Shown piece after piece: positions 12,146 through 48,060 of a DNA stretch of 64,000 bases (position 1 is its first letter; every line of letters starts with the position of its first letter). The notes below the pieces were generated by a model. That model did no database searches. It saw only the letters and a program-made list of their open reading frames with translations, and was not told where the DNA came from. This DNA comes from Dehalococcoidia bacterium (lineage in GTDB: Bacteria; Chloroflexota; Dehalococcoidia; Lucifugimonadales; UBA2962), in assembly GCA_965116605.1 (NCBI GenBank), contig OZ220697.1, forward strand, positions 1,852,766 to 1,916,765, written 5' to 3'. The translations under genes were made by a program, and so were the position numbers.

Positions 12146-12237
12146 TTGACCCCTCCGATGGGGCGTCCATTCTATACTGGTCTCCGATGTCCGTCGACGC
12201 GGACGGCGAACCCTAGCACAGGAGCAACAAGACTCGC

Positions 12238-13296
12238 ATGCATCCCTTCGGAGACGGCGCTGTCCGGCTCACAAGCCTGGCCTCATGCGCTGGTTGAGCG
12301 TCCAAGTTCAGTCCTGAAGACCTGGCGCAGGTGCTGCGCCAGCTGCCACCGGTAAGCGATCCCGACCTGCTTGTAGGCTTGTCGACGAGCGACGACGCCG
12401 CCGTCTATCGCCTGCGGCCGGACCTGGCCCTGGTCCAGACCATCGACTTTTTCCCGCCCATAGTCGACGATCCGTTTTCCTTCGGGGAGATAGCGGCGGC
12501 CAACGCCCTCAGCGACGTGTACGCGATGGGAGGCACTCCCCTCCTCGGACTTAACGTGGTCGCGTTCCCGGCCGACCATCCCAAGCAGGTGCTGTCCGAG
12601 ATACTCAGGGGCGGCGCATCCAAGGCCGGAGAGGCCGGGGTGCTGATCGTGGGCGGGCACACGGTAGACGACAAGGAACCCAAGTACGGCCTGGCGGTGA
12701 CGGGCACGGTGACGCCGGGCCGACAGATCACCAATGCCGGGGCCCGGCCGGGTGATGTCCTTATTCTCACAAAGCCCATCGGCACCGGCGTCATAACGAC
12801 CGCCGGCAAGGCCGAGGCAGTCGACGCCTCGGTACTTTCCGGTGCCGTGGACACCATGAGAGCGCTAAACGCCGGCGCCTCCCGGGCGATGGTCGCATCG
12901 CGCGCGCATGCATGCTCTGACGTGACCGGCTTCGGCCTCGTCGGACACCTTCGTGAGGTGGCGCAGGCCAGTGGCCTCACGGGATGCATCGAATCGGGGA
13001 ACGTGCCCCTGCTTGCCGGGGCCAGGGAGCTCGCTGAAGCCGGGTACGCGCCCGGCGGCTCGCGCCGCAACCTGGAGTCGGTCGACGCCTCGACCGCGTG
13101 GGCCGACGCGGTCGACCCCACGATGAGGCAGCTGCTCGCCGACGCGCAGACCTCCGGAGGACTGCTGATTGCGATCGCGCCGGCGGACCTGGACGAGCTG
13201 GCGGCCAACCTCGAGAGAGAAGGCGTGGCCGGGTGGGCGGCGATAGGTGAGTTAGTCGACCACGACGACGGGGACCCGTGGGTGATCGTGAATTGA
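12238..13296 (+). CDS. selD: Selenide, water dikinase (selenophosphate synthetase), selenocysteine-containing; in-frame UGA at 12295-12297
   Basis: My manual translation from the ATG at 12238 gives MHPFGDGAVRLTSLASCAGUASKFSPEDLAQVLRQLPP, which joins the track ORF at 12331. AGUASKFSP aligns with E. coli SelD AGCGCKISP, putting Sec in place of Cys17 with Lys20 conserved. The rest of the protein is typical SelD (DDAAVY, DFFxPIVDDPxxFGxIAAANAxSDVYAMGG). Confidence 0.9.
12322..12342 (+). promoter_or_regulatory. SECIS-like hairpin downstream of the selD UGA
   Basis: Perfect inverted repeat CTGGCGCAG-GTG-CTGCGCCAG (9 bp, or 8 bp with a GGUGC loop). It starts 27 nt after the U of UGA and has G/U in the apical loop. 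Confidence 0.55.
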
Positions 13297-13350
13297 CCCT
13301 CTCCCTTGCACCGGCAAGGTACGTCGCCCGGCCCCGGATCAAATGGCCCA

Positions 13351-15060
<1,710 letters not shown>

Positions 15061-17903: not shown

Positions 17904-19649
17904 TCACTTCTGGAAGACGGCTATCTCCGCCTTGTAGCCAATGTCCAGCGAGCCCGCGCTCTCTGAGTCGGGCAGCGGCTCCAGAGAGGCGAGGGCAACG
18001 AAATAGGCCCCTCCGGGAGTTCCGATCGTGGGATCGACCTGGTCGCCCTGTAGTGTGAGGGACAGTTCCCCGACGTCCTGACCGAACCAGGCGATGTGGA
18101 CCTTGATGGTCGCCTGGCCGGCGGTCGGGCACTCCGCATCGAGCGGACAGCGCGAGTCCTCAACCACCTCAAGGAAGGTGACGGTCAATCCATCGCCCTT
18201 TGACGGGCTCGCCATGCGCTCGCCCACCTCCAGGCGCACAAGGGTGCCCAGGGATGCGACCGTGACCTCCTCGCCATCCACCGCGTCGATGACCTCTCCG
18301 GAGAATGCGAACTGCGATGCGTCCCTGCCGCTGGTTCGAGAGCCGCCGACAGGGGTTGGCGTGGCCTGCTCTTCGGCGACGGCCTCGGCCGGCTCTACTC
18401 CCACCAGGGTCGATTCGGAGCCGCGGACACCGGTTGCGCACGCGCCTTCAGACGCAAAGGCGCCGTGGGTAAAGACCTCCGCGTTGATGGTCACGCTGTC
18501 CGTGCTCTGACCACCCACGATCAGGACACTACCATCGGCAAGGACCGTTGCGGTATGCCTGTAGCGCGTCTCCTCCATCGAGCCGGCGTCGTACCAGGTG
18601 TCGGTGGCGGGATCGTAGATCTCCGCGGTGGCCTTGTTTCCCAGGCTACCGATCACCAGGACTCGCCCGTCGGCAAGCACCGTGGCCGTGTGCTCGGCCC
18701 TGCCCTCGGCCATCTCGCCGGCGGGCGACCACTCCCCGGTCTGGGGGTCATAGATCTCGGCCGTCTGGCGGAGCTGGGAGTCGACGTCCGGGACCGGCTC
18801 ACCCTTCCCGCCGACCACGAGTACCCGGCCATCGGACAGGAGCGTCGCCGTGTGAAGGATGCGGGGAAGGCGCATCGAGCCGACCTGCGTCCATGTGTCC
18901 GCCAAGGGGTCGTAGACCTCGGCGGTGGCCAGGAACGGTCCCTCGGGCTTGCCACCCCCTGCGACCAGCACCCTCCCGTCCTGGAGGAGAGTGGCTGTGT
19001 GAATCGAGCGGGCCTGGCTCATCGGCGCGGCCTCCGTCCACTCGCCGCTGGCCGGATCGAATATCTCCGTGGAGCTCTGCTCACGCAGGTTCTTGTTCTT
19101 GCCGCCCGTGTACAGAACGCGGCCGTCGCTCAGCAGCACCGCCGCACCGCGCTCCCTGCCGGTCGACATCTTGCCTGTCGCCGACCACTCGCCCGTCTCC
19201 GGGTCGCGTACCTCCGTCGCCTTGGGAGGCTCCAGCTGCACGTCCGTTCCACCTGCCGCCAGGATGCTGCCATCGCCGAGGCTGATAAGAGTGAAGAACT
19301 CTCGCTCCTGACCCATGTCCCCGGACGGGCTCCACTGGCCGGTCGACGGATCGTAGATCTCGGAATGCGGGAACAGCCGCGGCCAGCGGGCTCCTCCCTT
19401 ACCCCTTCCACCGACTACCAGCACCTTGCCATCCTCGAGCATCAGGGCCGAATGCGATGATCTCTCGTTCGCCATGATCGTCTCGAGCCGGGCAAATTCC
19501 CCGAATGTCTCGCAGTCCGTCTGCTCGACCACCTGCTCAATCTGGCCACCGGCATCACCGGGCGGCCGGTCCTCGGCGGCCGGCTGGTTGGAGCAAGCGG
19601 CGACCAGGGCCGCCGCCGCGGCAATGACAAGAGCTATGGTTCCCTTCAA
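17904..19649 (-). CDS. Kelch-repeat lipoprotein with a C-terminal Cys-containing beta-rich domain
   Basis: Lipobox AALVAAC. At least six DGRVLV(V/I)GG...YDP..(D/G)(T/E)W Kelch units. The C-terminal roughly 170 aa contain EDSRCPLDAECP. Confidence 0.75.
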   Translation of the reverse strand: MKGTIALVIAAAAALVAACSNQPAAEDRPPGDAGGQIEQVVEQTDCETFGEFARLETIMANERSSHSALMLEDGKVLVVGGRGKGGARWPRLFPHSEIYDPSTGQWSPSGDMGQEREFFTLISLGDGSILAAGGTDVQLEPPKATEVRDPETGEWSATGKMSTGRERGAAVLLSDGRVLYTGGKNKNLREQSSTEIFDPASGEWTEAAPMSQARSIHTATLLQDGRVLVAGGGKPEGPFLATAEVYDPLADTWTQVGSMRLPRILHTATLLSDGRVLVVGGKGEPVPDVDSQLRQTAEIYDPQTGEWSPAGEMAEGRAEHTATVLADGRVLVIGSLGNKATAEIYDPATDTWYDAGSMEETRYRHTATVLADGSVLIVGGQSTDSVTINAEVFTHGAFASEGACATGVRGSESTLVGVEPAEAVAEEQATPTPVGGSRTSGRDASQFAFSGEVIDAVDGEEVTVASLGTLVRLEVGERMASPSKGDGLTVTFLEVVEDSRCPLDAECPTAGQATIKVHIAWFGQDVGELSLTLQGDQVDPTIGTPGGAYFVALASLEPLPDSESAGSLDIGYKAEIAVFQK

Positions 19650-19760
19650 ATCTTCCCCCAGGTCTATCTCGAGTCGGTCGTCACGTTGAGAAGCGCCCTC
19701 AAGGTGTCGCCGGTTTCCGGCCGAGAAGGATATCAGCAGCCACGGTATGAACGCCCCCCA

Positions 19761-20375
19761 TCACGCGAAGGCCTCACCGACCACGTTGGGAAATGCCAGC
19801 GGGGTGCCAAATCGAATGCTGAAGCGCTCCACCGTGAGGGCGGTGAATCCGGCCTGTCTCACCGCCGCCTCAACGTCCCGGTCCAGGTGGCATCCGGCCA
19901 CGAGACGCTTCCACACCGGGTTGAGACCGGCCTGAAGGGCCCTTCCCGCACTTCCCCTGGCAACCACATGCTCGTAGAACACGAACCTGCCGCCGGGCCG
20001 CAGCACGCGCCTTATTTCGGCGGCGACCGCGTCCAGATCGGCGACCGAGCACAGCACCAGCGTTGTAAGCACCGTGTCGAAGCTCCCATCCGGGAACGGC
20101 ATCTGCTCCCCGGATTCCTCAACGACGTCGATTGGACGGCCCAGCTTGGTGGCACGGCGCCGCAGGCGACGCGCCATGTGGGGGTTCGGCTCCAGGAATG
20201 TCAGCCTCGCCTGCGGAGGGAAGAAGGGCAGATTCGAGCCCGTTCCGCCACCGACCTCGAGCACCTGACCACTGACAGTGCCCGCCGTGGCCCGCCTGTA
20301 GCGAGCTATCCGCCACTCCACCGACGCGTTTAAGAGATCGTAGCCTGCGGCAAACAGCCACTGCTGAAAGGACAT
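19761..20375 (-). CDS. Class I SAM-dependent methyltransferase
   Basis: Motif I VLEVGGGTGSN, and the post-I/II region PFPDGSFDTVL. Confidence 0.8.
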   Translation of the reverse strand: MSFQQWLFAAGYDLLNASVEWRIARYRRATAGTVSGQVLEVGGGTGSNLPFFPPQARLTFLEPNPHMARRLRRRATKLGRPIDVVEESGEQMPFPDGSFDTVLTTLVLCSVADLDAVAAEIRRVLRPGGRFVFYEHVVARGSAGRALQAGLNPVWKRLVAGCHLDRDVEAAVRQAGFTALTVERFSIRFGTPLAFPNVVGEAFA

Positions 20376-20491
20376 CGAACAAGTTTATCCGGTGCCGGCA
20401 GTCCCCGGCCCGGAGGCAGGCGGCGGCCGAACGTCGCAGGCGATACAATCAAGGTGTAGGGATCTCGGTCCTGCTCGGGAGACAAGATGGT

Positions 20492-22646: not shown

Positions 22647-23735
22647 CTAGCGGTACCTGCCGCGGGCGGCGACCTCGAAAATCCCCTCGAGGCGGCCGTT
22701 CCTCGCGGCCATGATGTAGTCGAAGTGGTTGGCGGTCACCCCTATCTCGTATGGCACGAACCAGACCTTGTCGCCGATCCCGACCTCCGCGGTCGAGTCG
22801 GTCAGGTCAAGGTTAAAGTGCTCGGCGCTCAGGTAGGTCACCGTGGCCCCAGGCACGTTAGCGGGCCTGGGCAGCCCCGTGTCGTTGCCATTGGTCTTCA
22901 TGCCGGCGTCACCCACCGCCACACCCTCCACCGGGGTACTGACAACCGTCCCCAGCACCATCGCCGCCGGCTCGATGTCCCCCCGGATCCCCTCGTACTT
23001 AACGTCGCCCAGCGCATATGTCCCGGCAACGACCTCGGTGACGCCTTCCGCCCGCCCCGCGGCCTCGTAGTCCGCCGTCGATCCGACGGCAACCGTTGCG
23101 GTCGAAAGACCCGCAACCGCCAACGCCTCGCGCGCCTCGTGGACCCGCTCAAGGGCGGCTGCGCCGTCTTTGCCCGCCGGGCTCGGACCCCCGTAGGACG
23201 TTAGTCCCTTCAGCTGCACTCCGGGCAGCTCGGATATCCCCTTGGCCAGGCCGACGGCGGCGTCACTCGACGCCACACCGGTCAAGCCCAGCCCGGTATC
23301 GAGTTCTACCAGGAGGCCGACCTCGACGCCCCTCGCGGCGGCGGCCGTGGAGATTTCGGCAACGTTGTCCTCGCTGTCGACCGCGATCGATACGGTCGCG
23401 CGGCCGGCCAGCGCACACAGCGCTGCGATCTTTGCTGCAGTCACCGCCTTGCCGGTGATCATCACATCCCATACGCCGGCATCCACGAAGGCCTCGGCCT
23501 GACCCACCGTGCCCACGGCCACTCCACCGGCATGTCCTTCTACCGCGAGCTGGTGGTGGGCCAGGGTGGGACACCTGTGGGTGCCGACGAACGGGCGGAC
23601 CTTGGCCCTGCGGCCCTCGAAAAAGGAGTGCACCGCCTCGACATTGGCCTGGAACCTGTCCAGATCGACGACGAGAGCGGGCGTGTCGAGTTCTTCCACT
23701 GGGGTGCCGATGGGCTTGAGTATGGGACGTTCCAT
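22647..23735 (-). CDS. D-TA family / alanine-racemase-N-domain PLP enzyme, paralog 2
   Basis: DTPALVVDLDRFQAN and the same architecture and length as the adjacent gene. Confidence 0.7.
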   Translation of the reverse strand: MERPILKPIGTPVEELDTPALVVDLDRFQANVEAVHSFFEGRRAKVRPFVGTHRCPTLAHHQLAVEGHAGGVAVGTVGQAEAFVDAGVWDVMITGKAVTAAKIAALCALAGRATVSIAVDSEDNVAEISTAAAARGVEVGLLVELDTGLGLTGVASSDAAVGLAKGISELPGVQLKGLTSYGGPSPAGKDGAAALERVHEAREALAVAGLSTATVAVGSTADYEAAGRAEGVTEVVAGTYALGDVKYEGIRGDIEPAAMVLGTVVSTPVEGVAVGDAGMKTNGNDTGLPRPANVPGATVTYLSAEHFNLDLTDSTAEVGIGDKVWFVPYEIGVTANHFDYIMAARNGRLEGIFEVAARGRYR

Positions 23736-23779
23736 GCCTGTCTCCGTCGGGTTTCACGGAGATTAACATACGGGCCACC

Positions 23780-24448
23780 GTGGTACCATCGTGCCCTATG
23801 GGACGCGAAGGACGGTCCATCTTTCCAGGCAGGCAGGCCCCCGGAAAGGGAGACCTTTCGGAAGGCGATTACGTTGCTGCCGTAGAGGCCGGTCTTGTCG
23901 ACCGCAAGCGGGTCCTGGCGTCCCTGGATTTGCGCCGGGGGATCCAGAGCAACGGGAGCGTGGGCCCGGAATCCCTGGTGCTGACCGAGTCCCACATAAT
24001 CCACGTCTCGGTGGACACCCGGCAGAGGAGTGCCTCGATGGTGTCCGTGAGGGACGTGTCGGTGGCAAGGGTCGAGTCGGAGCGGCGCGGGCCCGGCGAG
24101 TACGTATGGGGGGCGCTGGCGGTCGTCCTGGGGTTCCTGCTCTGGCGCGTGATCGAGCACCCCGTCGCCTCCATCGCGGTCGGCATCGCAGTCGCCGCCA
24201 TGGGGGTTTACCTGATTGCGGACAAGATGTTTAGGCCCGCCACCGGCGTAGTGGTCCTGCTATCGGAAGACAGCCAGCAGCTTCGATATGACCTGCGAGG
24301 CGGCAGGGCAACGGCGGACGTTTACGAGTTCATATCCCGAATCTACGAACGCAAGGCCGAGATCACCAGCTCCGGCCAGTTCCCCGCCGGGTCCAGGCGC
24401 AGGGGCGAGGGCCGGGGCAGGTACTCCAACAGGGTCACACGCTCCTGA
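23780..24448 (+). CDS. Hypothetical membrane protein: a PH-like beta region interrupted by two TM helices; start uncertain
   Basis: LVLTESHIIHVSV...VSVRDVSVARVE, then two hydrophobic helices (WGALAVVLGFLLW, ASIAVGIAVAAMGVYLI), then VVVLLSEDSQQLRYDL...VYEFISRIYERK. Confidence 0.45.
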   Translation: MVPSCPMGREGRSIFPGRQAPGKGDLSEGDYVAAVEAGLVDRKRVLASLDLRRGIQSNGSVGPESLVLTESHIIHVSVDTRQRSASMVSVRDVSVARVESERRGPGEYVWGALAVVLGFLLWRVIEHPVASIAVGIAVAAMGVYLIADKMFRPATGVVVLLSEDSQQLRYDLRGGRATADVYEFISRIYERKAEITSSGQFPAGSRRRGEGRGRYSNRVTRS

Positions 24449-26658: not shown

Positions 26659-27321
26659 CTATCGGACAGCCGACCTGATGGCGCCGATCCCTGCCGCTAC
26701 GCCCGACGGGTGATTGAACACGGCAGATCCTGCAACCATCACAGTTGCGCCGGCCCTGCAGATATCAGGCGCGTTCGACGCCGATATCCCTCCGTCCACC
26801 TCCAGCTCGGCCCGTGATCCAGCCTCGTCCAGTTCACGCCTTGCACGCCTTATCTTGTCGAGCGAACCGGCTATGAACTCCTGGCCCCCGAAGCCGGGGT
26901 TGACGCTCATGACGAGCAGCAGATCGACGTCGGAAACCAGCTCCGCCACGGCCGAGAACGGCGTGGCTGGATTGAGCGCAACACCCGCCCTGGCACCGAG
27001 ATCCTTTATCTGGGCGACCGTTCGGTGAAGGTGCACCACCGCCTCGGCATGGACAGTGACGTAGTCCGCTCCCGCGTCGACGAGAGCGGGAACGAGCGAT
27101 CCTGGATCCTGCGCCATCACGTGGACGTCGAACGGGATGTCGGTAAAGGACCTGAGGGCCTCTATCACAGGCGGTCCGAACGTCAGGTTGGGAACGAAAC
27201 GTCCATCCATCACGTCAAGGTGGATCCAGTCGGCCCCTCCACGGGCCGCCTCGGCGACCTGCTCTCCCAGCCGGCCGAAGTCGGCCGACAGGACCGAAGG
27301 GGCGACCTTGACCGCCGTCAC
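26659..27321 (-). CDS. rpe: Ribulose-phosphate 3-epimerase
   Basis: APSVLSADF, HLDVMDGRFVPN, MSVNPGFGGQEF, and VDGGI. Confidence 0.92.
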   Translation of the reverse strand: MTAVKVAPSVLSADFGRLGEQVAEAARGGADWIHLDVMDGRFVPNLTFGPPVIEALRSFTDIPFDVHVMAQDPGSLVPALVDAGADYVTVHAEAVVHLHRTVAQIKDLGARAGVALNPATPFSAVAELVSDVDLLLVMSVNPGFGGQEFIAGSLDKIRRARRELDEAGSRAELEVDGGISASNAPDICRAGATVMVAGSAVFNHPSGVAAGIGAIRSAVR

Positions 27322-28757
27322 GAATCTCGACCCGCAGGGCCCATCGACCTGAACCTGCGAAGGTAGGCATCAATCTCCCCGGAAAGCCTGCCGCCAACGG
27401 CTGAGGTTGACTCCTCCACTCCTGCTTCAATGGACGTGCGTGCGGCCACTATGGCCCCCTCCACCTGGGGCCGAGCGGTGCCCCCCTCGACCCTGCGGTC
27501 ATTTATGGACGAGTCGGCATCGAGACCGAGCACATCCTCTTCGAACAGGTCGGAGTAGCCCTTGAGTTCCTCGAGGGTCAGATCCTTGATGGACCGGCCA
27601 GAAGAGGCGGCGTCGCTGGCCATTGCGGCCATTATTCCGTGCGCCTGCCTGAAAGGCATCCGCTTTCCTACCAGGTAATCTGCAAAGTCCGTCGCGAGCA
27701 GACTCCCCGTCTCCGCCGCGGCCCTCATGGCTCCGCGGTCGACCGTCATCGTTGCGACCATCTCGGCGGACACCTCGAGACAGGCCAGCAGCGTGTCGAC
27801 GCTGTCGAACAGTCCCTCCTTGTCCTCCTGGAGATCGCGGTTGTAGGTCAGGGGTAGCCCCTTGAGGGTGGTGAGTAGCGCCATCAAATTGCCGTATACC
27901 CTGCCCGTCCGCCCGCGGGTCAGCTCGGCATAGTCGGGGTTGCGTTTCTGCGGCATCATGCTGCTGCCCGTAGTGTGGGCATCGGCCAGCCGCACGAAGC
28001 CGAACTCCTCCGATGACCAGAGGATTAGCTCCTCGCTGAGGCGTGACAGGTGCATCATGCAGGTTGCGGATGCGGCCAGAACGTCGACGACAAAGTCCCT
28101 GTCCGACACGGCGTCCATGCTGTTGGCGGAGATCCGGCTGAAGCCGAGCTCGCTCGCCACCGAGCGCCGATCGAGCGGGTAAGGGGACCCCCCTATCGCA
28201 CCGCTGCCCAGCGGCATCGAGTCCGCCATTTCGGCCGCCTGCCCAAACCGCTGGACATCCCTGCCCAGCATCTCAAAGTAGGCGAGCAGGTGGTGGGCGA
28301 GGAGTACGGGCTGGCCTCGCTGAAGGTGCGTGTAACCCGGGAGAACCACGTCGACATTCGCCTCTGCCGCGTCCACGATGATCTCCCTGAACCCGTGAAG
28401 GCCGCCGAGTATTCTGGCGATCGCCTGCCGAGCGTACATCCGCATGTCCAGGGCGATCTGGTCGTTGCGAGATCTGGCGGTGTGCAGCTTGCCGGCGGCC
28501 GACCCGATCTTCTCTGCCAGCCGGCTCTCGATATTCATGTGAAGATCCTCGAGCCCGGGCTTCCAGGGGAATTCGCCCGACGAGATCTCCTCCCTTATCT
28601 GCATCAACCCGTCCACGATCTGCCCCATTTCCTCCTCATCGATGATGCCCTGCCGGGCCAGCATTCGGACGTGCGCCATCGACCCGGCGATATCGTGCTC
28701 GTAGAGCCGCCGGTCGTAGTGGATCGACACCGTAAAGTCGGACGGTCCCTCTACCAT
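27318..28757 (-). CDS. argH: Argininosuccinate lyase (short N-terminus)
   Basis: DIAGSMAHVRMLARQGII, TARSRNDQ, GYTHLQRGQP, and GSSMMPQKRNP. The track ORF extension to 28952 overlaps the MaoC gene, so I use the ATG at 28757. Confidence 0.85.
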   Translation of the reverse strand: MVEGPSDFTVSIHYDRRLYEHDIAGSMAHVRMLARQGIIDEEEMGQIVDGLMQIREEISSGEFPWKPGLEDLHMNIESRLAEKIGSAAGKLHTARSRNDQIALDMRMYARQAIARILGGLHGFREIIVDAAEANVDVVLPGYTHLQRGQPVLLAHHLLAYFEMLGRDVQRFGQAAEMADSMPLGSGAIGGSPYPLDRRSVASELGFSRISANSMDAVSDRDFVVDVLAASATCMMHLSRLSEELILWSSEEFGFVRLADAHTTGSSMMPQKRNPDYAELTRGRTGRVYGNLMALLTTLKGLPLTYNRDLQEDKEGLFDSVDTLLACLEVSAEMVATMTVDRGAMRAAAETGSLLATDFADYLVGKRMPFRQAHGIMAAMASDAASSGRSIKDLTLEELKGYSDLFEEDVLGLDADSSINDRRVEGGTARPQVEGAIVAARTSIEAGVEESTSAVGGRLSGEIDAYLRRFRSMGPAGRDS

Positions 28758-28770
28758 GGCTGGCCGGACC

Positions 28771-29256
28771 TCACCCCGCGTCCTGCCTGGCGGGTACCAG
28801 GAACTTGCGCCTGAGGGTGAGCACGGTCTCGCCCCGCTGGTTAATCCCGCGCGACTCCATGTAGACGATGCCCCTGTCCGCCCGGCTTGTGAGCGTCGTC
28901 TCAAGGATCCTGCTCTCGGCGTATATCGTGTCCCCGATGAACACGGGGGCATCGTGCCTGACCGACTCGTACTCGAGGTTTGCCACGGCCCTTCCCGACG
29001 TATCGGGCACGCTCATGCCGACAACCAGGCTCATCACCAGTGGTCCGACGACCAGGATTCGCCCGTGCTGGTGCTCCGACATGTAGTTCTCATCGATGTG
29101 CAGCGGGTTGGTGTTCATCGTCAGCAGCGAGAACATGTGGTTGTCGGCCTCGGTAATGGTCTTGCCGGGCCAATGGCGGTAGACGTCGCCCGGGGAGAAA
29201 TCCTCGAAGTACCCGCCGAACGAGTCCCTCCCGTCCATGATCTTTCCCGCGCTCAC
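28771..29256 (-). CDS. MaoC-like (R)-specific enoyl-CoA hydratase / hot-dog fold dehydratase
   Basis: 161 aa. It has ITEADNHMFSLLTMNTNPLHID and a hot-dog fold pattern. Confidence 0.75.
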   Translation of the reverse strand: MSAGKIMDGRDSFGGYFEDFSPGDVYRHWPGKTITEADNHMFSLLTMNTNPLHIDENYMSEHQHGRILVVGPLVMSLVVGMSVPDTSGRAVANLEYESVRHDAPVFIGDTIYAESRILETTLTSRADRGIVYMESRGINQRGETVLTLRRKFLVPARQDAG

Positions 29257-29317
29257 GGCTCCGGCCTCGCTTCCGGCGGCCGAACGGGGACCCGGCTGAG
29301 GCCAATTCGAAGGGAAT

Positions 29318-30478
29318 TCATAACTTATACCTGTCCAGTAAACGTCGGGCGATGAGCAGCCTGAGCACCTCGTTGGTGCCCTCTCCCAGGATCATGAGGG
29401 GGGCGTCCCGGTAGTACCTTTCGATCGGCAGGTCCTTGATGTAGCCGTAGCCGCCATGGATCCGCATAGCGTCCATGGTCACCTGCGAGCAGATCTCGCT
29501 GGAATAGTACTTGGCCATCCCGGACTCAAGGTCCGCCCGCTCGCCGCGGTCCTTCTTCTCCGCCGCGCTGTGGGTGAGGAGTCTGGCGGCCTGTATCTTC
29601 GTTCCCATGTCCGCGAGCGCAAGCTGGATGGCCTGATGCTCGGATATCGGCTTTCCAAATGTCTCGCGCTGTCGGCTGTAGCGGGCGGCGGCGTCAAACG
29701 CCGCCTGTGCAACCCCCACGGCGCGGGCCGCCACGTTGATCCTTCCACTCTCGAGGGCCGACATGACCTGCCCGAAGCCCTTGCCTTCTGTGCCTCCTAC
29801 CAAATTGGCGGCGGGCACCCGGGCTCGGTCGAAAATGAGCTCGCAGGTGTCGACGCCCCTGTAACCGAGCTTGTCGAGCTTGCGACCGACCGAAAAGCCC
29901 CGGGTCGGCTTTTCCACGATCAGGCAGCTCATGCCCCGGTACGGGGGATCGGCGGAAGGGTCGGTTTTGGCCAGTACCGCAAATCCACCTCCGTGTTGAC
30001 CGTTCGTGATGAACATCTTGGAGCCGGTGACGATATAGTCATCGCCGTCGCGCTTCGCTATCGTCTGCAGCGCCTGCACGTCTGAGCCGCCGCCCGGCTC
30101 GGTCAGCGCCAACCCGCCCCGCAGCTCGCCGGCGGCCATCGCGGGCAGCCACCGAGCCTTCTGCTCGCCGGTGCCGTAATCGGCGATGACCTGAGCCATT
30201 ACGTGGTGCGTGCCAATGGGGCCGGTCAGACTCATCCAGGCCTTGGCCAACTCCTCGAATATGATGGCGAAGGTCGTGTGATCCAGGCCCATGCCGCCGT
30301 AGCGCTCGGGAATGGTGATGCCGAACAGTCCGAGCGCCGCCATGCGGTCGACCAGCTCGGCGGGATACTCGTCGTCGGGCTCAAGCCGTGCCGCCACCTG
30401 CTCGACCTCGCGCCTGGCGAAGTCACGCACAAGCGCAACGATCTGGGCCCTGGTATCCACCGATGCGGCCGCCTTCAC
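29318..30478 (-). CDS. Acyl-CoA dehydrogenase
   Basis: ALTEPGGGSD, FITNG, C-terminal IHGGYGY..D.PIERYYRDA....ILGEGTNE. The GTG at 30478 is preceded by AAGGAGG. The track ORF extension overlaps argG. Confidence 0.85.
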   Translation of the reverse strand: MKAAASVDTRAQIVALVRDFARREVEQVAARLEPDDEYPAELVDRMAALGLFGITIPERYGGMGLDHTTFAIIFEELAKAWMSLTGPIGTHHVMAQVIADYGTGEQKARWLPAMAAGELRGGLALTEPGGGSDVQALQTIAKRDGDDYIVTGSKMFITNGQHGGGFAVLAKTDPSADPPYRGMSCLIVEKPTRGFSVGRKLDKLGYRGVDTCELIFDRARVPAANLVGGTEGKGFGQVMSALESGRINVAARAVGVAQAAFDAAARYSRQRETFGKPISEHQAIQLALADMGTKIQAARLLTHSAAEKKDRGERADLESGMAKYYSSEICSQVTMDAMRIHGGYGYIKDLPIERYYRDAPLMILGEGTNEVLRLLIARRLLDRYKL

Positions 30479-30485
30479 CGGATTG

Positions 30486-31739
30486 CTACCTCCTTCCGGC
30501 GAGGGGGAACTGCCTGCTGCCGTAGTTCTTGGCAGCGACGCCATGCACCCTCAGGAATCCCTCGGCATCCAGGTGGTCGTAGTCCCCCTCCGCCTCCATG
30601 GACGAGTCATCGGTGTAAAGGGAGTGGGCCACGTCGCCGGCAGACTCGAATGAGACGGCTCCCTTGTACAGCCCCACCGTGATCTCTCCCGTGGCCAGTC
30701 GCGTCATCGGCTCCAGGGCGGCGAGCGCAGAGGTCGTCGCCACGTCGAACCAGTACCCTTCGTATATCTGGGTCGAGATCGTGGCCGACAGATGCTCGTA
30801 CAGAAGGCGCGCCCGCCGGTCCAGGACCATCTGGAGAAGATACTCGTAGCAGCGGCCCAGAAGCTCCATCCCCGGCGATTCGTAGATGCCCCTGGACTTG
30901 ACTCCGACGAACCGGTTCTCCACGGTGTGAATTCCGATGCCCACCCCGTGCCGGCCACCCAGGTTGTTGGCCTGGGCGATTATCTCGGCAAGGCCCATCC
31001 TCCTGCCGCCTATGGCCACCGGCCTGCCTTCCTCCCAGCGGACGCGGACCGACTCGGCGACATCCGGCGCGCTCGAGGCGAACACGCCCATGCCCGGCTC
31101 GACAAAGGTCGGGGGAATGGACACGTCCTCCAGGTCCCCCGCCTCGTGGGTGAGCCCCAGGAAGTTGGCGTCCGTCGAGTACCGCGACTCGCTCCTCGGC
31201 CTTATCGGCAGGGCGTTCTCCTCGCAGTAGTCGAGCATCTGCCGCCTACCCGGGAAGGCCTCGACGAACTCGGGATCGCGCCATGGAGCGTAGACCTGCA
31301 AACCTGGCGCCAGCATGTTTGCGCCGATCTGAAAGCGCACCTGGTCGTTGCCCCGGCCGGTCGCCCCGTGGAACAGGACGCCGATGTCCCTTTCCCTGAG
31401 CTCCGGCACGATGGCGGCGACGGTGACCGGTCGGGCAATCCCCGTGGTGTTCCAGTACCCCCCTTCATACCGCGCCTGGGCCTGCAACACCTTGAGCCCG
31501 GCCTCCGCCAGGGCCTCCCTACCGTCGATCACGTCGGCCCTGGACGCCCCGCAGGCCAGCATTCGATCCGCCACGGCGGATAGATGCTCCTCGTCCGGCT
31601 GTCCCAGATCGACCGTAAAGGCCTGCACGTCAACGCCACGCTCGCTCAGCCAGTGGGTTACGGTGCAGCTGTCCAGACCGCCAGAGACCGCTCCTCCAAA
31701 GACCGTGATCCCGCGGTCGGCCAGTTCCCTCCAGTTCAT
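30486..31739 (-). CDS. argG: Argininosuccinate synthase
   Basis: FGGAVSGGLDS (PP-loop), HGATGRGNDQVRF, and length of about 417 aa. Confidence 0.9.
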   Translation of the reverse strand: MNWRELADRGITVFGGAVSGGLDSCTVTHWLSERGVDVQAFTVDLGQPDEEHLSAVADRMLACGASRADVIDGREALAEAGLKVLQAQARYEGGYWNTTGIARPVTVAAIVPELRERDIGVLFHGATGRGNDQVRFQIGANMLAPGLQVYAPWRDPEFVEAFPGRRQMLDYCEENALPIRPRSESRYSTDANFLGLTHEAGDLEDVSIPPTFVEPGMGVFASSAPDVAESVRVRWEEGRPVAIGGRRMGLAEIIAQANNLGGRHGVGIGIHTVENRFVGVKSRGIYESPGMELLGRCYEYLLQMVLDRRARLLYEHLSATISTQIYEGYWFDVATTSALAALEPMTRLATGEITVGLYKGAVSFESAGDVAHSLYTDDSSMEAEGDYDHLDAEGFLRVHGVAAKNYGSRQFPLAGRR

Positions 31740-31745
31740 TGCATC

Positions 31746-32933
31746 TCAGGCCTTCGACGCGTCGAGCGCCCGCTCGAACCTGTCGACCGCCTCGTCGACC
31801 TCCTCCCTGGTCACGGTCAGGGGAGGAAGCCACCGGACCAGGTTGGGCCGGGTCACGTTCAGCAGCAGGCCCTCCTCGTTGCAGGACGGCAGCAGGGCGG
31901 CTGCGATGTCGGCCGAGAACTCTACGCCGACCAGGCAGCCCATGCCCCTGACATTGGAGATTATCTCGTGCTTGGAACGCAGCCCATCGAGCCTGGACAT
32001 CAGGTAGCTGCCCACCTCAGCCGCGTTCTCTGAAACGTTGTTGTCGATCAGGTAGCGGGTCGAGGCGTTGGCGGCGGCGCATGTAAGGGCGTTGCCTCCA
32101 AATGTCGAACCGTGATCGCCCGGCTCGAGAACATCGGCCCGCTCGTTGCAAAGAAATGCGCCGATGGGCACACCGCCACCCAGCCCCTTGGCCAGCGTTA
32201 CGACGTCGGGCGCTACATCGAAGGCCTCGTATCCAAACAGCTTGCCCAGCCTGCCCAGCCCGGTTGTTACCTCGTCCAGGATCAGCAAAAGGTCCTTCTC
32301 ATCGCACCAGGCCCGCACCCCGCTGAGGTAGTCCTGCTCGGGTATATTGACGCCTCCCTCACTCTGGACGGGCTCCAGCATCACGGCGACCGTGTCTTCG
32401 CCTGTGGCCGCCTTGATCTGGTCAAGGTCCCCAAAATCCACGTGCACGAATCCAACCGGCACCGGCGCCCACGCCTCCTGGTACTTTGGCTGAGCGGTCG
32501 CCGCCACCATGTTCATCGTTCGCCCGTGGAAAGAGTTATATGCCGTGATTATCTCTCCCGGGCCGTTCTTGTTTACACGACCCCACTTTCGCGCCAGCTT
32601 GACCGCGCCCTCGTTCGCCTCGGCCCCGCTGTTGCAGAAAAAGACCTTGTCCAGGACGCTGTTCTCTATCAGCACCTCGGCCAGCTCAAGCTGCGGAACG
32701 GTGAAGAACTGGTTCGAGGTCTGAAGCAGGGTACGCGCCTGGGAGGCAATCGCCTCAGCCATGGCACTGTTGGCGTGGCCGACGTTGTTGACCGCCCAGC
32801 CTGCAGTAAAGTCAAGATATTCCTTGCCCTGATCGTCCCACACGCGTGTCCCCTCCCCGCGCACGATCACCACGGGCTGCCTGTTGACGACATGCATGTA
32901 GTACCTGGACTCCATGGCCCTGTAGTCGGTCAT
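31746..32933 (-). CDS. argD: Acetylornithine aminotransferase (class III PLP aminotransferase)
   Basis: GEGTRVWDDQGKEYLDFTAGWAVNNVGH, DEVTTGLGRLG, and TLAKGLGGG. The ATG at 32933 has GGAG upstream. Confidence 0.85.
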   Translation of the reverse strand: MTDYRAMESRYYMHVVNRQPVVIVRGEGTRVWDDQGKEYLDFTAGWAVNNVGHANSAMAEAIASQARTLLQTSNQFFTVPQLELAEVLIENSVLDKVFFCNSGAEANEGAVKLARKWGRVNKNGPGEIITAYNSFHGRTMNMVAATAQPKYQEAWAPVPVGFVHVDFGDLDQIKAATGEDTVAVMLEPVQSEGGVNIPEQDYLSGVRAWCDEKDLLLILDEVTTGLGRLGKLFGYEAFDVAPDVVTLAKGLGGGVPIGAFLCNERADVLEPGDHGSTFGGNALTCAAANASTRYLIDNNVSENAAEVGSYLMSRLDGLRSKHEIISNVRGMGCLVGVEFSADIAAALLPSCNEEGLLLNVTRPNLVRWLPPLTVTREEVDEAVDRFERALDASKA

Positions 32934-33035
32934 TTGTTCACACTCCAGATCGCAATTTGAACGCAAGTATATTCCCGCACGGTTACGTGGGTGTCGATTC
33001 CCCGCCGCGCGGTTCGCACCGGCAGGGGGGCGGAC

Positions 33036-33932
33036 CTAGCCTACACGGGTGCCGATTGAGCGTCGGCCCTGTCGATCGCCTTCGGTCCAGGCGCTGTCGA
33101 GCAGCACGTGCGGTATCCGGCCGTCGACGATGTGGGCCGTGGACACGGTCCTGAGGGCCGCAAGGCAGGCCTCGAGCTTGGGGATCATGCCCCCGGCTAC
33201 GATGCGCGAGTCCATCAGTCCCCTGGCCTGCCTCTCCGTCAGCCTGGGTATCAGCCGCCTGGAGGAATCGAGTACGCCCGGCACGTCGGTCAGCATGATG
33301 AGCCGGTCGGCCCCGAGCGCGGCGGCGATCGCTCCGGCCGCAAGGTCCGCGTTGACGTTCAGCATGCCTGGCCCGGAATCACCCGCGTTGAGCGCAACTG
33401 GAGCTACGACCGGGATGAGGCCGGCCGAGGCGAGATCGACGACGGTAGATGGGTCGACGGCGATCACCCTGCCTACGTGCCCCAGCTCGGGCGCGTCGTT
33501 TTCGGCACGCAGGATGCCACCGTCGACACCCGAAAGGCCGACGGCCCTTCCCCCGAGCGAGAGGATGTCTCCCACAATGGACTTATTGACCAGGCCCGTC
33601 AGGACCGCCACCACGACGTCCAGAGTCCGTTCGTCGGTAACCCTGAGCCCACGTATGAACCTGGGCCTGATCCCCTGCCGCTCAAGCCACTCGGTGATTA
33701 CCTTGCCGCCGCCGTGCACGATCACCGTCCTGACCCCCCGCCGCTGAAGGTCCACTATGTCGGCAAGGGTGGTGTCATTGGTCCCCAGCGTACTTCCGCC
33801 AATCTTAACGACCACCATGGGGCCGGACCCCGATCCAGCCTTCGGACCTGACCTGACGGGATCGGCGCCGGCGTGCACGTGCGCGTCGTCGGAGGCTCCG
33901 GAGGAGAGAGAAAGTGACAACCTGTGCTGCAT
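33036..33932 (-). CDS. argB: Acetylglutamate kinase (alternative start at the ATG at 33818, MVVVKIGGS)
   Basis: VVKIGGSTLG, VIVHGGG, and NVNAD. The ATG at 33932 sits in TGAGATG, directly after the argJ stop. Confidence 0.85.
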   Translation of the reverse strand: MQHRLSLSLSSGASDDAHVHAGADPVRSGPKAGSGSGPMVVVKIGGSTLGTNDTTLADIVDLQRRGVRTVIVHGGGKVITEWLERQGIRPRFIRGLRVTDERTLDVVVAVLTGLVNKSIVGDILSLGGRAVGLSGVDGGILRAENDAPELGHVGRVIAVDPSTVVDLASAGLIPVVAPVALNAGDSGPGMLNVNADLAAGAIAAALGADRLIMLTDVPGVLDSSRRLIPRLTERQARGLMDSRIVAGGMIPKLEACLAALRTVSTAHIVDGRIPHVLLDSAWTEGDRQGRRSIGTRVG

Positions 33933-33933
33933 C

Positions 33934-35160
33934 TCAGGTCGTGTACGCCGAGTTGAAGATCACGTACTCCTCGGTCAGGTCGCAGCCCCAGGCCCTCGCG
34001 GTCTCATCACCCAGGTTGAGGTCAATGCCCAGCTGCACTTCCGGGGCGCCCATCGCGCTGACCACCGCATCCTTGAAGAACGAGATAGCCATGCCCTGAT
34101 GCACGATCTGTATCTCGTTTATGAACATGTCGATCCTGGACTCGTCTATGGCTGCGCCGCTCTTTCCCAGGGCCATCATCATCCTGCCCCAGTTGGGATC
34201 CCTGCCGTGAAGCATCGCCTTTACGAGCATCGAGCCGGCGATCTCCCTGGCCGCCAGGCGCGCATCCTTCAGGGAGCCCGCCCCCCGCACTACTACCTCC
34301 ATCAGCCGCTGCGCCCCCTCGGCATCCCGGACCAGCTCCTTGGCCAGCTCCGTGCAAACGTGACCCAGCGCGGCCCTGAAGTCATCTGCATCCGCAGTCC
34401 CTTCCGCGATCTCCGGGCCCCCCGCCACCCCGTTGGCCATGAGCAGCACCGTGTCGTTGGTGCTCTGGTCGCCGTCAACGTCGATCATGTTGAAGGAGGC
34501 ATCCACCGCGGCCCCGAGCGACTCCTGCAGGAACGCCTGCTGCACCGGGGCATCCGTGGACACAAAGCAGAGCATGGTCGCCATGTTGGGGTGGATCATA
34601 CCGACGCCCTTGGCCGCGCCCCCCACGGTTATCCTCCGCCCGCCGGAACCGCCCGACTCAAATGACACGGCGATCTCCTTGGATCGCGTGTCCGTCGTCA
34701 TTATTGCCCGCGCAAAATCCCCGCCGCCGCCCGCGCCAAGTTCAATGTTGCCGATGTTCTGGCGGATCAGCGCCATTGGCAATTCGACGCCGATCACGCC
34801 GGTGCTGCACACCATCACCTGACCGGCATCGACGCCGACGTGACCGGCGGCCAGGGCGGCCATCTCGGTCGCGTCGGCCAACCCCTGCTCTCCAACGCAG
34901 CAGTTTGCACAGCCGCTGTTAGCAACCACCGCTCGGGCCCTCCCGGACTTCGCCCGCGACCTGCTCAGGGTCACCGACGGAGAAACGACGGAATTGGTGG
35001 TGAAGGTCGCAGCAAGGGCGGCGGGCCGCTCCGAAAAGAGTATGCCGAGATCGAGCACCCCCTCTTCCGGCGTCTTGAGGCCGGCATAGGTTCCGCCCGC
35101 AAGAAAGCCCATTGCGGAGGTCACTCCACCTCCCGGTATCAACTTAATTGTCGCCGTCAC
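33934..35160 (-). CDS. argJ: Bifunctional glutamate N-acetyltransferase / amino-acid acetyltransferase
   Basis: GFLAGG..AGLK, autoproteolytic site region ATMLCFVSTDA, and C-terminal NSAYTT. Confidence 0.9.
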   Translation of the reverse strand: MTATIKLIPGGGVTSAMGFLAGGTYAGLKTPEEGVLDLGILFSERPAALAATFTTNSVVSPSVTLSRSRAKSGRARAVVANSGCANCCVGEQGLADATEMAALAAGHVGVDAGQVMVCSTGVIGVELPMALIRQNIGNIELGAGGGGDFARAIMTTDTRSKEIAVSFESGGSGGRRITVGGAAKGVGMIHPNMATMLCFVSTDAPVQQAFLQESLGAAVDASFNMIDVDGDQSTNDTVLLMANGVAGGPEIAEGTADADDFRAALGHVCTELAKELVRDAEGAQRLMEVVVRGAGSLKDARLAAREIAGSMLVKAMLHGRDPNWGRMMMALGKSGAAIDESRIDMFINEIQIVHQGMAISFFKDAVVSAMGAPEVQLGIDLNLGDETARAWGCDLTEEYVIFNSAYTT

Positions 35161-35323
35161 ACAAGGGTCTCCAATTTGGCCTAAAGCAGTCTACATCCAC
35201 ACGGACGCAAAGACCGAGTATAGCATAGCGGGTCGCAGATCGAATACTCTGAGGCCGAGCCTGTTGGCGCGAAATCAGGACGGTGGCATGGCGAGCGGCT
35301 CGAGCGAGCGCACCCCGGTCTGC

Positions 35324-39018: not shown

Positions 39019-39093
<75 letters not shown>

Positions 39094-39206: not shown

Positions 39207-42343
<3,137 letters not shown>

Positions 42344-42578: not shown

Positions 42579-43475
42579 CTAGGCGCCGACGATGGCGCGT
42601 GCGATCTCCGCGGCCAGCTCCCTGGTGCAGGCGGCGATCAGCCACGGCACCCTCTCCGATGAGCGTTCCGGCTCAAAGCGGTAATCGGTCAGCTCTCCCG
42701 TATCGGACGCGGAGAAGACACCCAACGCGCAGGCACTGGCGAATCCCAGGCCCGGATCGATCTCGGTGCGGGGTTCGTCGTACATGACATATGCGTGAGT
42801 CAGACCCCTGGCCAGCCAGGGATAGCTGCAGGCCCCGCCGTCGGTCCACAGCCTGGCCCGAGGGCTTTCCTCCTCCAGGATCGTCAGCAGTCCTGCCGAG
42901 CGGCCCGTCCAGTACCTGACGTAACTCGGGCTCATCAGGTAGGCCGCAATGATCGACTCGTCGGATAGCGTCCTTGCAGTTGAGGGACGAACATCCCTGA
43001 CCTCGCCGCTGTACAGGGACTCGACGGTCACGGCCGAATCGGTGGCCATGTACAGCTCCCTGCGGTTTATGTCAACCGCCCCTGCCATCACCGGAGAGGG
43101 GGACCCCTCGGCCGCGCTCCATACCGTAAGCACACTCCACCACTCGGCGGGCAGCCCGCGCATGAAGTGACCGGAACCGTCGAACGGGTCGCAGGTGATA
43201 AGGAAGGGGGCGGGACCACGGCCTCCGATCCTCCGCCGACTGTGCTCGGAGTACAGCTCTACATCTACACCGCATTCCTCAAGCCAACGCTGCAGAAGGT
43301 CCTCCGAATAGCGGTCCAGCCCGATCTCCACATCCTCTACCTCGGTCCGTCCCGCCACCGGTCCGAGCACGGCGCGCCCCTCGCCTCCGCTGAGGCGGGG
43401 CACTTCCTGCGCCAGCTGTCTGAGGTAGCCGTCAATCGCCCTGCGGAACCCACCCAGCTCGCCAGCACTCATCAC
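42579..43475 (-). CDS. Divergent FBPase/IMPase (FIG) superfamily-like phosphatase
   Basis: The only recognisable element is CDPFDGSGHF, resembling the DP(I/L)DG(S/T) metal-binding motif. The second family motif (WDxAAG) was not found. Confidence 0.4.
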   Translation of the reverse strand: MMSAGELGGFRRAIDGYLRQLAQEVPRLSGGEGRAVLGPVAGRTEVEDVEIGLDRYSEDLLQRWLEECGVDVELYSEHSRRRIGGRGPAPFLITCDPFDGSGHFMRGLPAEWWSVLTVWSAAEGSPSPVMAGAVDINRRELYMATDSAVTVESLYSGEVRDVRPSTARTLSDESIIAAYLMSPSYVRYWTGRSAGLLTILEEESPRARLWTDGGACSYPWLARGLTHAYVMYDEPRTEIDPGLGFASACALGVFSASDTGELTDYRFEPERSSERVPWLIAACTRELAAEIARAIVGA

Positions 43476-43604
43476 CGGGCCGACCTATCGGTTTCGGGCT
43501 CACATGCCATACTGACCGCAGGTGCGCTGCGGGAAGCTCCCCTCCATCCAGCCACTCCGTAGCCGGCGACATCGGCCAGACGGCTCAAGCTGATCGATCC
43601 CCCT

Positions 43605-44216
43605 TCACTGGCTGATGGCAGGTCCGGCGTAGCGCATTCGCTCGGGCAGGTCCTCGATTACGCCCAGTGCCACGGCCGTGCGATGAGCAACAAAGTCGAC
43701 AACCTCCTCGGTCGTCTGCTGTCGCAGGTAGAAGGCTGGCTCAGGCGGAATTATCGTGGCGCCTGCGGCCGCGAGGTCAGCAAGATTCCTGAGGTGAATC
43801 ACGCTTAGGGGCGTCTCCCTTGGCACCACCACCAGCGGCCTGCCCTCCTTGATCGTAACGTCGGCCGCCCGGCGCAGAAGGTTGTCCGCATGCCCGTGCG
43901 CGATCGCGGCGGCCGTTGCCATGCTACACGGCACAACCGCCATACCGGCCGTGGGAAAGGTTCCCGAAGCGATCGAGGCGCGCATGTCTCCTATTGCGCA
44001 GTGGGTGAAGTCTCCCATGCCGGCCCATCGCTCGATCGCCTCGCCGAAAGACTCGTCCATCTCCTCAGTCCAGACCATGCGAGCCGCCGGAGAGGCCGTT
44101 GACACCACGGGCACGCCCCGAGACAGCAGCAGCTCGACGGTCGCCCTTGCCAGTACCGACCCGCTGGCGCCACTCATGCCGACAACCACGGGCCTCGAAT
44201 CGATTCGCGGAGACAT
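43605..44216 (-). CDS. ubiX: Flavin prenyltransferase UbiX (prenyl-FMN synthase)
   Basis: VVGMSGASGSVLA, VVPCSMATAAAIAHGHADNLLRRAADVTIKEGRPLVVVPRETPL. Its ATG at 44216 overlaps the ubiA stop (TGATG). The upstream part of the long track ORF is an out-of-frame shadow of ubiA. Confidence 0.9.
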   Translation of the reverse strand: MSPRIDSRPVVVGMSGASGSVLARATVELLLSRGVPVVSTASPAARMVWTEEMDESFGEAIERWAGMGDFTHCAIGDMRASIASGTFPTAGMAVVPCSMATAAAIAHGHADNLLRRAADVTIKEGRPLVVVPRETPLSVIHLRNLADLAAAGATIIPPEPAFYLRQQTTEEVVDFVAHRTAVALGVIEDLPERMRYAGPAISQ

Positions 44217-45127
44217 CAGACGAACACCGCCGCGGCGGTGCCTGCCAGGACCGTGGAAGCAACGAGGGCGTTGATTCGGAAGAAGGCCATCCCCATTCGC
44301 GACATGTCGCCAGGAGACACCAGTAGGTACTTGTATGACAGGCCGGCCACCGCGGCCGTCCAGCCCAGATAGAAGGGCCATGAAAGCCCCATGGCCAGAC
44401 CCAGGGCCAACAGGGAACCGGAGGCCGCAACGTCCATCGCCCTTGCGACAGTGAACGCACGGCGGACACCGAACCGTCCTGCCACCGAGTGCAGACCACT
44501 GGCCCTGTGAAACTCTTCGTCCTGTGCGTGATAGATGATGTCGAAGCTGCCCGCCCACATGGCGACTGCCACCGACAGCACCACAGGTTCCCAGCTCAGA
44601 GAACCGCGCACACCTATCCATGCCGCTGCGGGAGCGATCGCCAACGCCCAACCCAGCAGCGGGTTTGCCAGATACGTGAAGCGCTTGGTCAAAGGGTAGA
44701 GGGTGAGATATGCGGCGGCGGCGGGAACCAACGCGAGAGCCAGCGTGTTGAGACGCCAGGCCGCCACGGTCAGCACCGCCAGCCCGATCAGGGCCAGTGC
44801 CGCCATGTCGGAGGCGCGAAGGCGGCCGGTGGGAAGGTGCCGGCCGGCGGCGCGGGGGTTGCGCGCATCTATATGCCGGTCTATCAGCCGGTTTGCCGCC
44901 ATTCCCAGGGTTCTGGCGCCAACCATAGCGACGGTGATCCACAGGAACTGGGCCAACGTGGGCAGACCGTCAGCCGCAAGAAACATGCCTGTGTAGGCAA
45001 ACGGCAGTGCGAACAAGCTCTCATGGATCTTGATCGCGTCCGGGAGGTGCCGAAGTCGTCTTGACAGTGGTTCGGGACTGCCTACCACCCGGGGCGAGAG
45101 CGCGGTCAAAGCCCGTACTCCTCCCAT
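44216..45127 (-). CDS. ubiA: UbiA-family aromatic polyprenyltransferase (4-hydroxybenzoate/MqnP-like)
   Basis: Asp-rich motif NRLIDRHIDARNPR(T/A)AGR, multiple TM helices and a second motif region YHAQDEEFD-like. The ATG at 45127 overlaps the ubiD 3' end by 22 nt. Confidence 0.8.
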   Translation of the reverse strand: MGGVRALTALSPRVVGSPEPLSRRLRHLPDAIKIHESLFALPFAYTGMFLAADGLPTLAQFLWITVAMVGARTLGMAANRLIDRHIDARNPRAAGRHLPTGRLRASDMAALALIGLAVLTVAAWRLNTLALALVPAAAAYLTLYPLTKRFTYLANPLLGWALAIAPAAAWIGVRGSLSWEPVVLSVAVAMWAGSFDIIYHAQDEEFHRASGLHSVAGRFGVRRAFTVARAMDVAASGSLLALGLAMGLSWPFYLGWTAAVAGLSYKYLLVSPGDMSRMGMAFFRINALVASTVLAGTAAAVFV

Positions 45128-47741: not shown

Positions 47742-48060
47742 CGGAAAAGACTATCATCGCCCGACGTAGACTCTGCAACCGTGGCCTAGCCCCTGTCGCC
47801 CGACGCACGGCCTCCGGCGGACGGGCGAACGACCCCCGAAAGGAGGCGCAAACAGTCACCTTGCTCCCTTTCCGCAGGGATGACGCCGCACAGCACGCAC
47901 GCCCAGCATCTTCGTCGGTCCAGGGTGCCGGACAGGCGCGGTGGAGAAACCGGCCCTGACCACCGATGGGGGGATGCAGCGTTGATTTCTTCCTTGGCGC
48001 TGAGGCTGCAACGTGCGTCTGACCTACGATCTAAACTGACCGGCAAAGGGTTCGCACGCG

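Follow-up and report, generated by a model that had tools for sequence, protein, structure and literature searches.

The window, by which we mean the whole 64-kb stretch of DNA that was analysed, carries on its plus strand a selD reading frame at 12238-13296, which comprises 352 codons and a TGA stop and includes at codon 20 an in-frame TGA (12295-12297) that is predicted to specify selenocysteine (Sec). The frame is closed on its 5' side by TAG 12214-12216; ATG 12238-12240 is the only start codon between this TAG and the conserved motif of the catalytic loop, and no stop other than the TGA at 12295-12297 interrupts the frame from 12238 to its terminal TGA (13294-13296). A Shine-Dalgarno-like AGGAG, presumably functional, lies upstream on the same strand (12220-12224) at a rather long distance of 13 nt from the ATG, and the initiating Met is kept in the closest relatives (L001-L004). 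Translation through the TGA yields a product of 352 residues that starts MHPFGDGAVRLTSLASCAG-U-ASKFSPEDLAQVL. The ORF list places the start of selD at GTG 12331-12333 (+), giving 321 aa, and read-through adds 31 codons to this model; the GTG is actually the internal Val32 codon and, at the same time, the apical loop of a hairpin. The preliminary description had placed the ATG, the TGA, the TAG and the AGGAG at these positions and had held that the ORF track misses the UGA and the first 31 codons; direct reading of the DNA bears out every coordinate and the 352-codon read-through frame.

The window opens with an ORF (3-1415, +), some 11 kb 5' of selD, which encodes the L-seryl-tRNA(Sec) selenium transferase SelA (PF03841, 428.4 bits; PF12390, Se-cys_synth_N, 37.3 bits) and is followed by a gene for a rarA/mgsA-type ATPase. 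The start of selA lies at or beyond the window edge, and there is no ATG ahead of its LRGLPSVD motif in the window. On the plus strand, a simple scan found no promoter-like site for selD. Downstream, argS starts within approximately 10-50 nt, and selD and argS may be co-transcribed, since no terminator-like site was found in the gap between them. The argS gene of the window is one intact ORF of 584 aa (13306-15060); in L081 (11021-12731), a 98%-identical metagenome contig, it appears as two overlapping genes of 234 and 349 aa, probably because of a frameshift error in that assembly. Elsewhere in the window, an arginine cluster on the minus strand (27321-35190) has the order argJ-argB-argD-argG ... 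argH, with acyl-CoA dehydrogenase and MaoC-type hydratase genes inserted between argG and argH. A 23S rRNA gene (39215-42333, -) has tRNA-Met(CAT) (39019-39093, -) 121 nt downstream; the gap between the two contains no 5S rRNA and the entire 64 kb no 16S rRNA, and the rRNA genes thus appear to be unlinked. A 1.3-kb gap beside the rRNA gene (43808-45106) has no long ORF, and three high-GC3 ORFs, at 42582-43484 (-), 46560-47750 (-) and 23720-24445 (+), match no Pfam family at E <= 1e-5.

The read-through product, with Cys substituted for Sec, scores 378.7 bits against the SelD equivalog TIGR00476 (cut-off 125) and 350.4 bits against NF002098 (cut-off 299). Residues 10-316 match TIGR00476 profile positions 1-309; the match thus begins at profile position 1 within the recovered N-terminus, which means that the family model itself needs the N-terminal extension. 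The best structure match is E. coli SelD (3U0O; 244 bits, query residues 6-345 against chain residues 3-340), and the two proteins align end to end, sharing the register of the catalytic loop and the motifs of the ATP site. In this alignment, residue 20, encoded by the UGA, falls on Cys17, and Lys23 (codon AAG, 12304-12306) falls on the catalytic Lys20. The first two bases of the Lys23 codon (columns 16-17 of A1, in which 72 sequences are aligned without gaps and with the UGA as anchor) are AA in 72/72, so that each sequence has AAA or AAG here. The cysteine of SSGCAAK in Aquifex aeolicus SelD (2YYE) also aligns to residue 20; 2YYE and 2ZOD are crystal structures of the A. aeolicus protein in which Cys replaces Sec. 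The motifs DDAAVY, T.DFF, SD.(Y/F)AMGG and DVTGFGL are all conserved relative to both 3U0O and 2YYE, and AIRS and AIRS_C domains (PF00586 and PF02769) are on record for SelD homologues. Judged from its sequence, the frame at 12238-13296 is predicted to encode full-length SelD, selenide, water dikinase. The earlier proposals that the recovered peptide is the SelD N-terminal loop, and that it places Sec at the Cys17 position with the catalytic Lys three residues later, agree with both the profile match and the 3U0O alignment.

At this catalytic position the E. coli enzyme has Cys17 (G-A-G-C-G-C-K), which needs neither recoding nor a SECIS element, whereas the selD of the window has a UGA; Cys19 of E. 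coli SelD is replaced by Ser. Sec-containing SelD is not new. Haemophilus influenzae SelD is presumably one such bacterial protein. As in other Sec-type bacterial SelD proteins, the protein of the window belongs to the TIGR00476 family, has the catalytic Lys three residues after the predicted Sec of its N-terminal loop, has a SECIS-type hairpin within the coding sequence just after the UGA and suffers the same truncation by gene callers. It is set apart from them by its occurrence in Dehalococcoidia/Chloroflexota, where related clades have two alternative hairpin registers. It also differs from Aquifex SelD (S-S-G-U) in having a Cys three residues before Sec (C-A-G-U, 12286-12297; Cys17 codon TGC, 12286-12288), and this Cys is present in 64/70 distinct relatives. 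Speculatively, Cys17 of the window protein could serve as a selenenylsulfide partner of Sec in this CxxU motif. Among prokaryotic selenoprotein families SelD is described as the second most widespread, its Sec being located in the flexible N-terminal loop (PMC1794560; PMC13188914), and the view taken in the preliminary description that Sec-type SelD is a known class accords with both papers.

A homologue search returned thousands of proteins, and the best 120, which we inspected, are all truncated models, nearly all of 320-324 aa, that cover 88-91% of the query. We also scanned genomes, one per species, and obtained 80 loci, nearly all from metagenome-assembled genomes (MAGs) of Dehalococcoidia/Chloroflexota with a few from Deferrimicrobiaceae or Firmicutes; the closest is on chromosome OZ242262.1, with a SelD 94% identical to that of the window. 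The SelD of a second complete chromosome, OZ244723.1, shows 93% identity. At each locus the DNA was read 5' of the tblastn-anchored match, and 79 loci were informative, L078 being excluded because it lies at a contig end. In 79/79, the frame runs on through a single TGA at the identical site of RLT.LA.CAG*A.K. Across the 11 codons 5' of the UGA, comparison of 70 distinct relatives with the window gives 384 synonymous and 122 non-synonymous differences; this mostly synonymous change indicates purifying selection on a translated sequence and, as we read it, excludes an untranslated leader, a pseudogene and sequencing error. Close homologues that begin at the equivalent of 12331 and lack the loop had been named as one observation that would count against a recoded selD. 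What we found is the loop and the UGA in the DNA of all 79 loci, and the short database models of the homologues reflect the same truncation as the ORF track rather than loss of the loop.

These data bear directly on the model in the ORF track, according to which UGA 12295 is a stop or part of an untranslated leader, SelD is a 321-aa protein starting at GTG 12331, and the upstream likeness to SelD is a leftover. The ORF list and every public gene call do agree on a product of 320-324 aa, and no selB or tRNA-Sec turned up in the window or in the flanks of Dehalococcoidia relatives. However, a SelD truncated in this way would be without the Sec/Cys17-Lys20 loop that is present in the profile and in the solved structures, the upstream peptide is conserved in 79/79 loci with mostly synonymous change, unlike untranslated sequence, and GTG 12331 has no Shine-Dalgarno sequence and lies inside the loop of a hairpin of -16 kcal/mol. 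We therefore give this model a very remote chance of being right and regard the 321-aa product, of which the contig index holds no record, as a gene-caller artefact without the catalytic Sec/Lys loop. The same data address the idea that a nonsense mutation or a fault in the assembly produced the TGA, in which case selD would be a pseudogene or a mis-sequenced Cys-type gene. A single base suffices to turn TGC or TGT into TGA, and the split argS of L081 suggests that sequencing errors do happen, but the identical TGA is found in 79 independent assemblies whose proteins are 48-94% identical, a covarying hairpin lies downstream of it, and the remaining gene is intact and scores far above the family cut-offs. 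The comparative data effectively refute mutation or error, and we consider its probability almost nil.

Downstream of the UGA, a SECIS-type hairpin, here called hairpin B, spans 12322-12342 (+), with a stem of 12322-12330 paired to 12334-12342 and an apical loop GUG at 12331-12333. Its sequence, CTGGCGCAG-GTG-CTGCGCCAG, forms nine perfect pairs closed by a 3-nt loop (dG -16.2 kcal/mol, z = -3.5 against shuffles); the stem sets in 24 nt and the loop 33 nt after the UGA. The perfect 9-bp inverted repeat noted earlier at these coordinates is therefore confirmed. Approximately eight distinct perfect 9-bp hairpins occur in the window, whereas simulated sequences average 2.5; taken alone, hairpin B is rare and not unique, and it counts as evidence because it lies after the UGA and covaries in relatives. 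The published bSECIS model calls for an apical loop of 3-9 nt, an upper stem of 4-16 bp, a G in the first two loop positions, a UGA-to-loop distance of 16-37 nt and a minimum free energy of -7.5 kcal/mol or lower (PMC13188914). Hairpin B agrees with the model on every point: its stem has 9 bp, its 3-nt loop opens with G and U, its spacing is 33 nt, close to the upper limit, and its energy is -16.2 kcal/mol. The preliminary description had called the spacing compatible with a bacterial SECIS; agreement with all the published parameters, together with covariation, strengthens that view of what is a predicted element.

In the covariation test on alignment A1, hairpin B (12322-12330/12334-12342) showed changes on both sides at 7/9 pairs and 75.6% of cells paired, against 44% for the best slid control. 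A second hairpin, A (12317-12324/12328-12335), located 6 nt upstream of B, showed changes on both sides at 5/8 pairs and 84.8% of cells paired, against 53% for its best slid control. None of 500 shuffles for B, and none of 500 for A, matched the observed paired fraction or covariation score. Some compensations in hairpin B couple a silent change at an Ala third position with Arg-to-Gly, or a change at a Leu third position with Gln-to-Lys; such coupling suggests that the RNA, and not the peptide, is what selection acts on. The two hairpins are mutually exclusive by clade: 37 loci use B, 28 use A and 7 further loci are left unassigned by a simple rule. The window itself can form only 5 of the pairs of A. 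Sequences in the A register read AGGACCUC-GGC-GAGGUCCU or AAGACCUG-GUN-CAGGUCUU (for example, L032:9965-10030 and L021:189-254). In L011 (9965-10030) both hairpins can form perfectly, and this locus looks like an intermediate of a 'sliding' SECIS. Hairpin B is also present in the distant Clostridia locus L065, and for this reason B is probably the older register.

Generic RNA searches were less informative. RNAalifold, applied to the mixed 72-sequence alignment, yielded nothing but a stem of 6 pairs around the UGA without compensatory change, and missed A and B because the two conflict between clades. This small UGA-containing stem can often be formed, but its 5' side is invariant and it too shows no compensatory change. 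At the gathering threshold, Rfam found no SECIS or tRNA-Sec family in the window, and a permissive scan of 12200-12420 gave sub-threshold chance matches on the minus strand only; since no Rfam scan gave any match to a SECIS family, the silence of Rfam on the hairpin means little.

The reference among bacterial SECIS elements is that of E. coli fdhF, whose sequence we confirmed in 5,419 E. coli genomes and folded; its GGUC loop begins 18 nt after the UGA. Like the hairpin of the window, it is a stem-loop that lies in the coding frame downstream of the UGA and whose small apical loop contains G followed by U, and the apical sequences are alike: GCA-GGUC-UGC in fdhF, GCAG-GUG-CUGC in the window and GCAG-GUC-CUGC in many relatives. 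The two differ in spacing, the loop lying 33 nt after the UGA in the window and 18 nt in fdhF, and in the stem, which in the window has 9 uninterrupted base pairs and lacks the bulged U of the fdhF element. The hairpin of the window is predicted to bind SelB. What is mildly unusual about this selD is that hairpin registers differ between clades, that the loop lies so far from the UGA and that a Cys is conserved before Sec.

With respect to the remaining Sec machinery, we searched the window, the 80 selD loci and 3 more selD/selA loci of close relatives for selB and tRNA-Sec. Neither tRNA-Sec nor a SelB-like GTPase was found in the 64-kb window, nor at distances of up to 10 kb from selD or selA in any of the Dehalococcoidia relatives. 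A SelB-like GTPase ORF stands beside selD only in the Firmicutes-type loci L065, L069 and L079, and tRNA-Sec was detected only in L079 (76 bits to RF01852). Two 93-nt ARAGORN calls, 'tRNA-Gln(CUG)' at L056:14124-14216 (-) and 'tRNA-His(GUG)' at L057:14124-14216 (-), were considered as relatives of tRNA-Sec and are most likely false; they lie approximately 3 kb downstream of selD in SAR202-type MAGs, have no Rfam tRNA match and look coding-like by eye. In relatives, selA shares contigs with Sec-type selD, including the syntenic loci L081-L083. SelA uses the selenophosphate made by SelD to convert Ser-tRNA(Sec) into Sec-tRNA(Sec), and to our knowledge it has no role besides making Sec-tRNA(Sec).

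That selB and selC were not found in the window or in the Dehalococcoidia flanks could be taken to favor translation of the UGA by near-cognate suppression or under a reassigned code, with Cys, Trp or Gly inserted, or insertion of Cys from a tRNA(Sec) mis-charged with it; such low-level read-through might also help to launch a SelD that depends on its own product. However, UGA terminates 23/46 annotated genes of the window, which indicates the standard code, excludes codes 4 and 25 and led us to reject genome-wide reassignment. In addition, residue 20 is the known Sec/Cys catalytic site, the SECIS-type hairpin is conserved and the window encodes SelA. We accordingly regard a residue other than Sec at this UGA as highly unlikely and hold it very probable, on the comparative sequence evidence, that the gene is a genuine Sec-type selD in which UGA 12295 would be read as Sec under direction of the hairpin to give 352 residues.

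A corollary drawn in the preliminary description, that further TGA-split genes should be expected, received no support within the 64 kb, where neither a search for long TGA-joined pairs nor two finer scans found another UGA-interrupted gene. The TGA-joined pairs at 17904-20384 (-), a methyltransferase beside a Kelch-repeat protein, and at 30486-33035 (-), argD beside argG, were rejected as adjacent genes. All that came out of the finer scans, one of them SECIS-aware, was the argD/argG junction, antisense shadows of genes already recognized and a single intergenic site. Since the GC3 thresholds used are so coarse that selD itself can be missed, this negative carries little weight. More TGA-split genes elsewhere in the genome are still plausible, and SelD is the only selenoprotein in some bacteria (PMC1794560).

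If the gene is indeed a Sec-type selD, its expression may be envisaged as follows. Translation would start at AUG 12238, the sole available start codon and one conserved in close relatives. As its structure, position and covariation suggest, the hairpin at 12322-12342 would recruit SelB-GTP-Sec-tRNA(Sec) at the UGA, so that Sec would be put in at 12295 in place of termination. By homology and alignment, the frame at 12238-13296 (+) would then yield a selenophosphate synthetase of 352 residues with Sec20 in its catalytic N-terminal loop. Following the established pathway, this SelD would make selenophosphate from selenide and ATP, after which SelA (3-1415) would make Sec-tRNA(Sec); synthesis of SelD would consequently depend on its own product in a self-dependent loop.

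For annotation, the 352-residue selenoprotein replaces a 321-aa model that would seem inactive or be mis-scored. Gene calling that is naive to stop-codon recoding has a known weakness at Sec UGA codons, and the same truncation affects essentially all close relatives of this SelD in public metagenome protein sets. The selD of the window is a correct yet ordinary case: it shows all the defining features that could be tested, and it leaves selenoprotein biology unchanged. A wider reading can be put forward tentatively. The SelD SECIS could be evolutionarily mobile, given two exclusive and separately covarying hairpins that lie 6 nt apart and are distributed by clade; it could act from farther than in the E. 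coli paradigm, with a UGA-to-loop distance of 27-33 nt versus 18 nt; the conserved C-x-x-U could form a protective selenenylsulfide; and SelD by itself might maintain the Sec-decoding trait in these Dehalococcoidia lineages. A Sec trait maintained by SelD has reportedly been proposed for marine communities poor in FdhA. That all four of these propositions hold together seems to us rather doubtful. The presence of selA in the same window as selD indicates that this Dehalococcoidia lineage has the Sec-decoding trait, and if making SelD requires Sec, then its selenium metabolism would be self-dependent.
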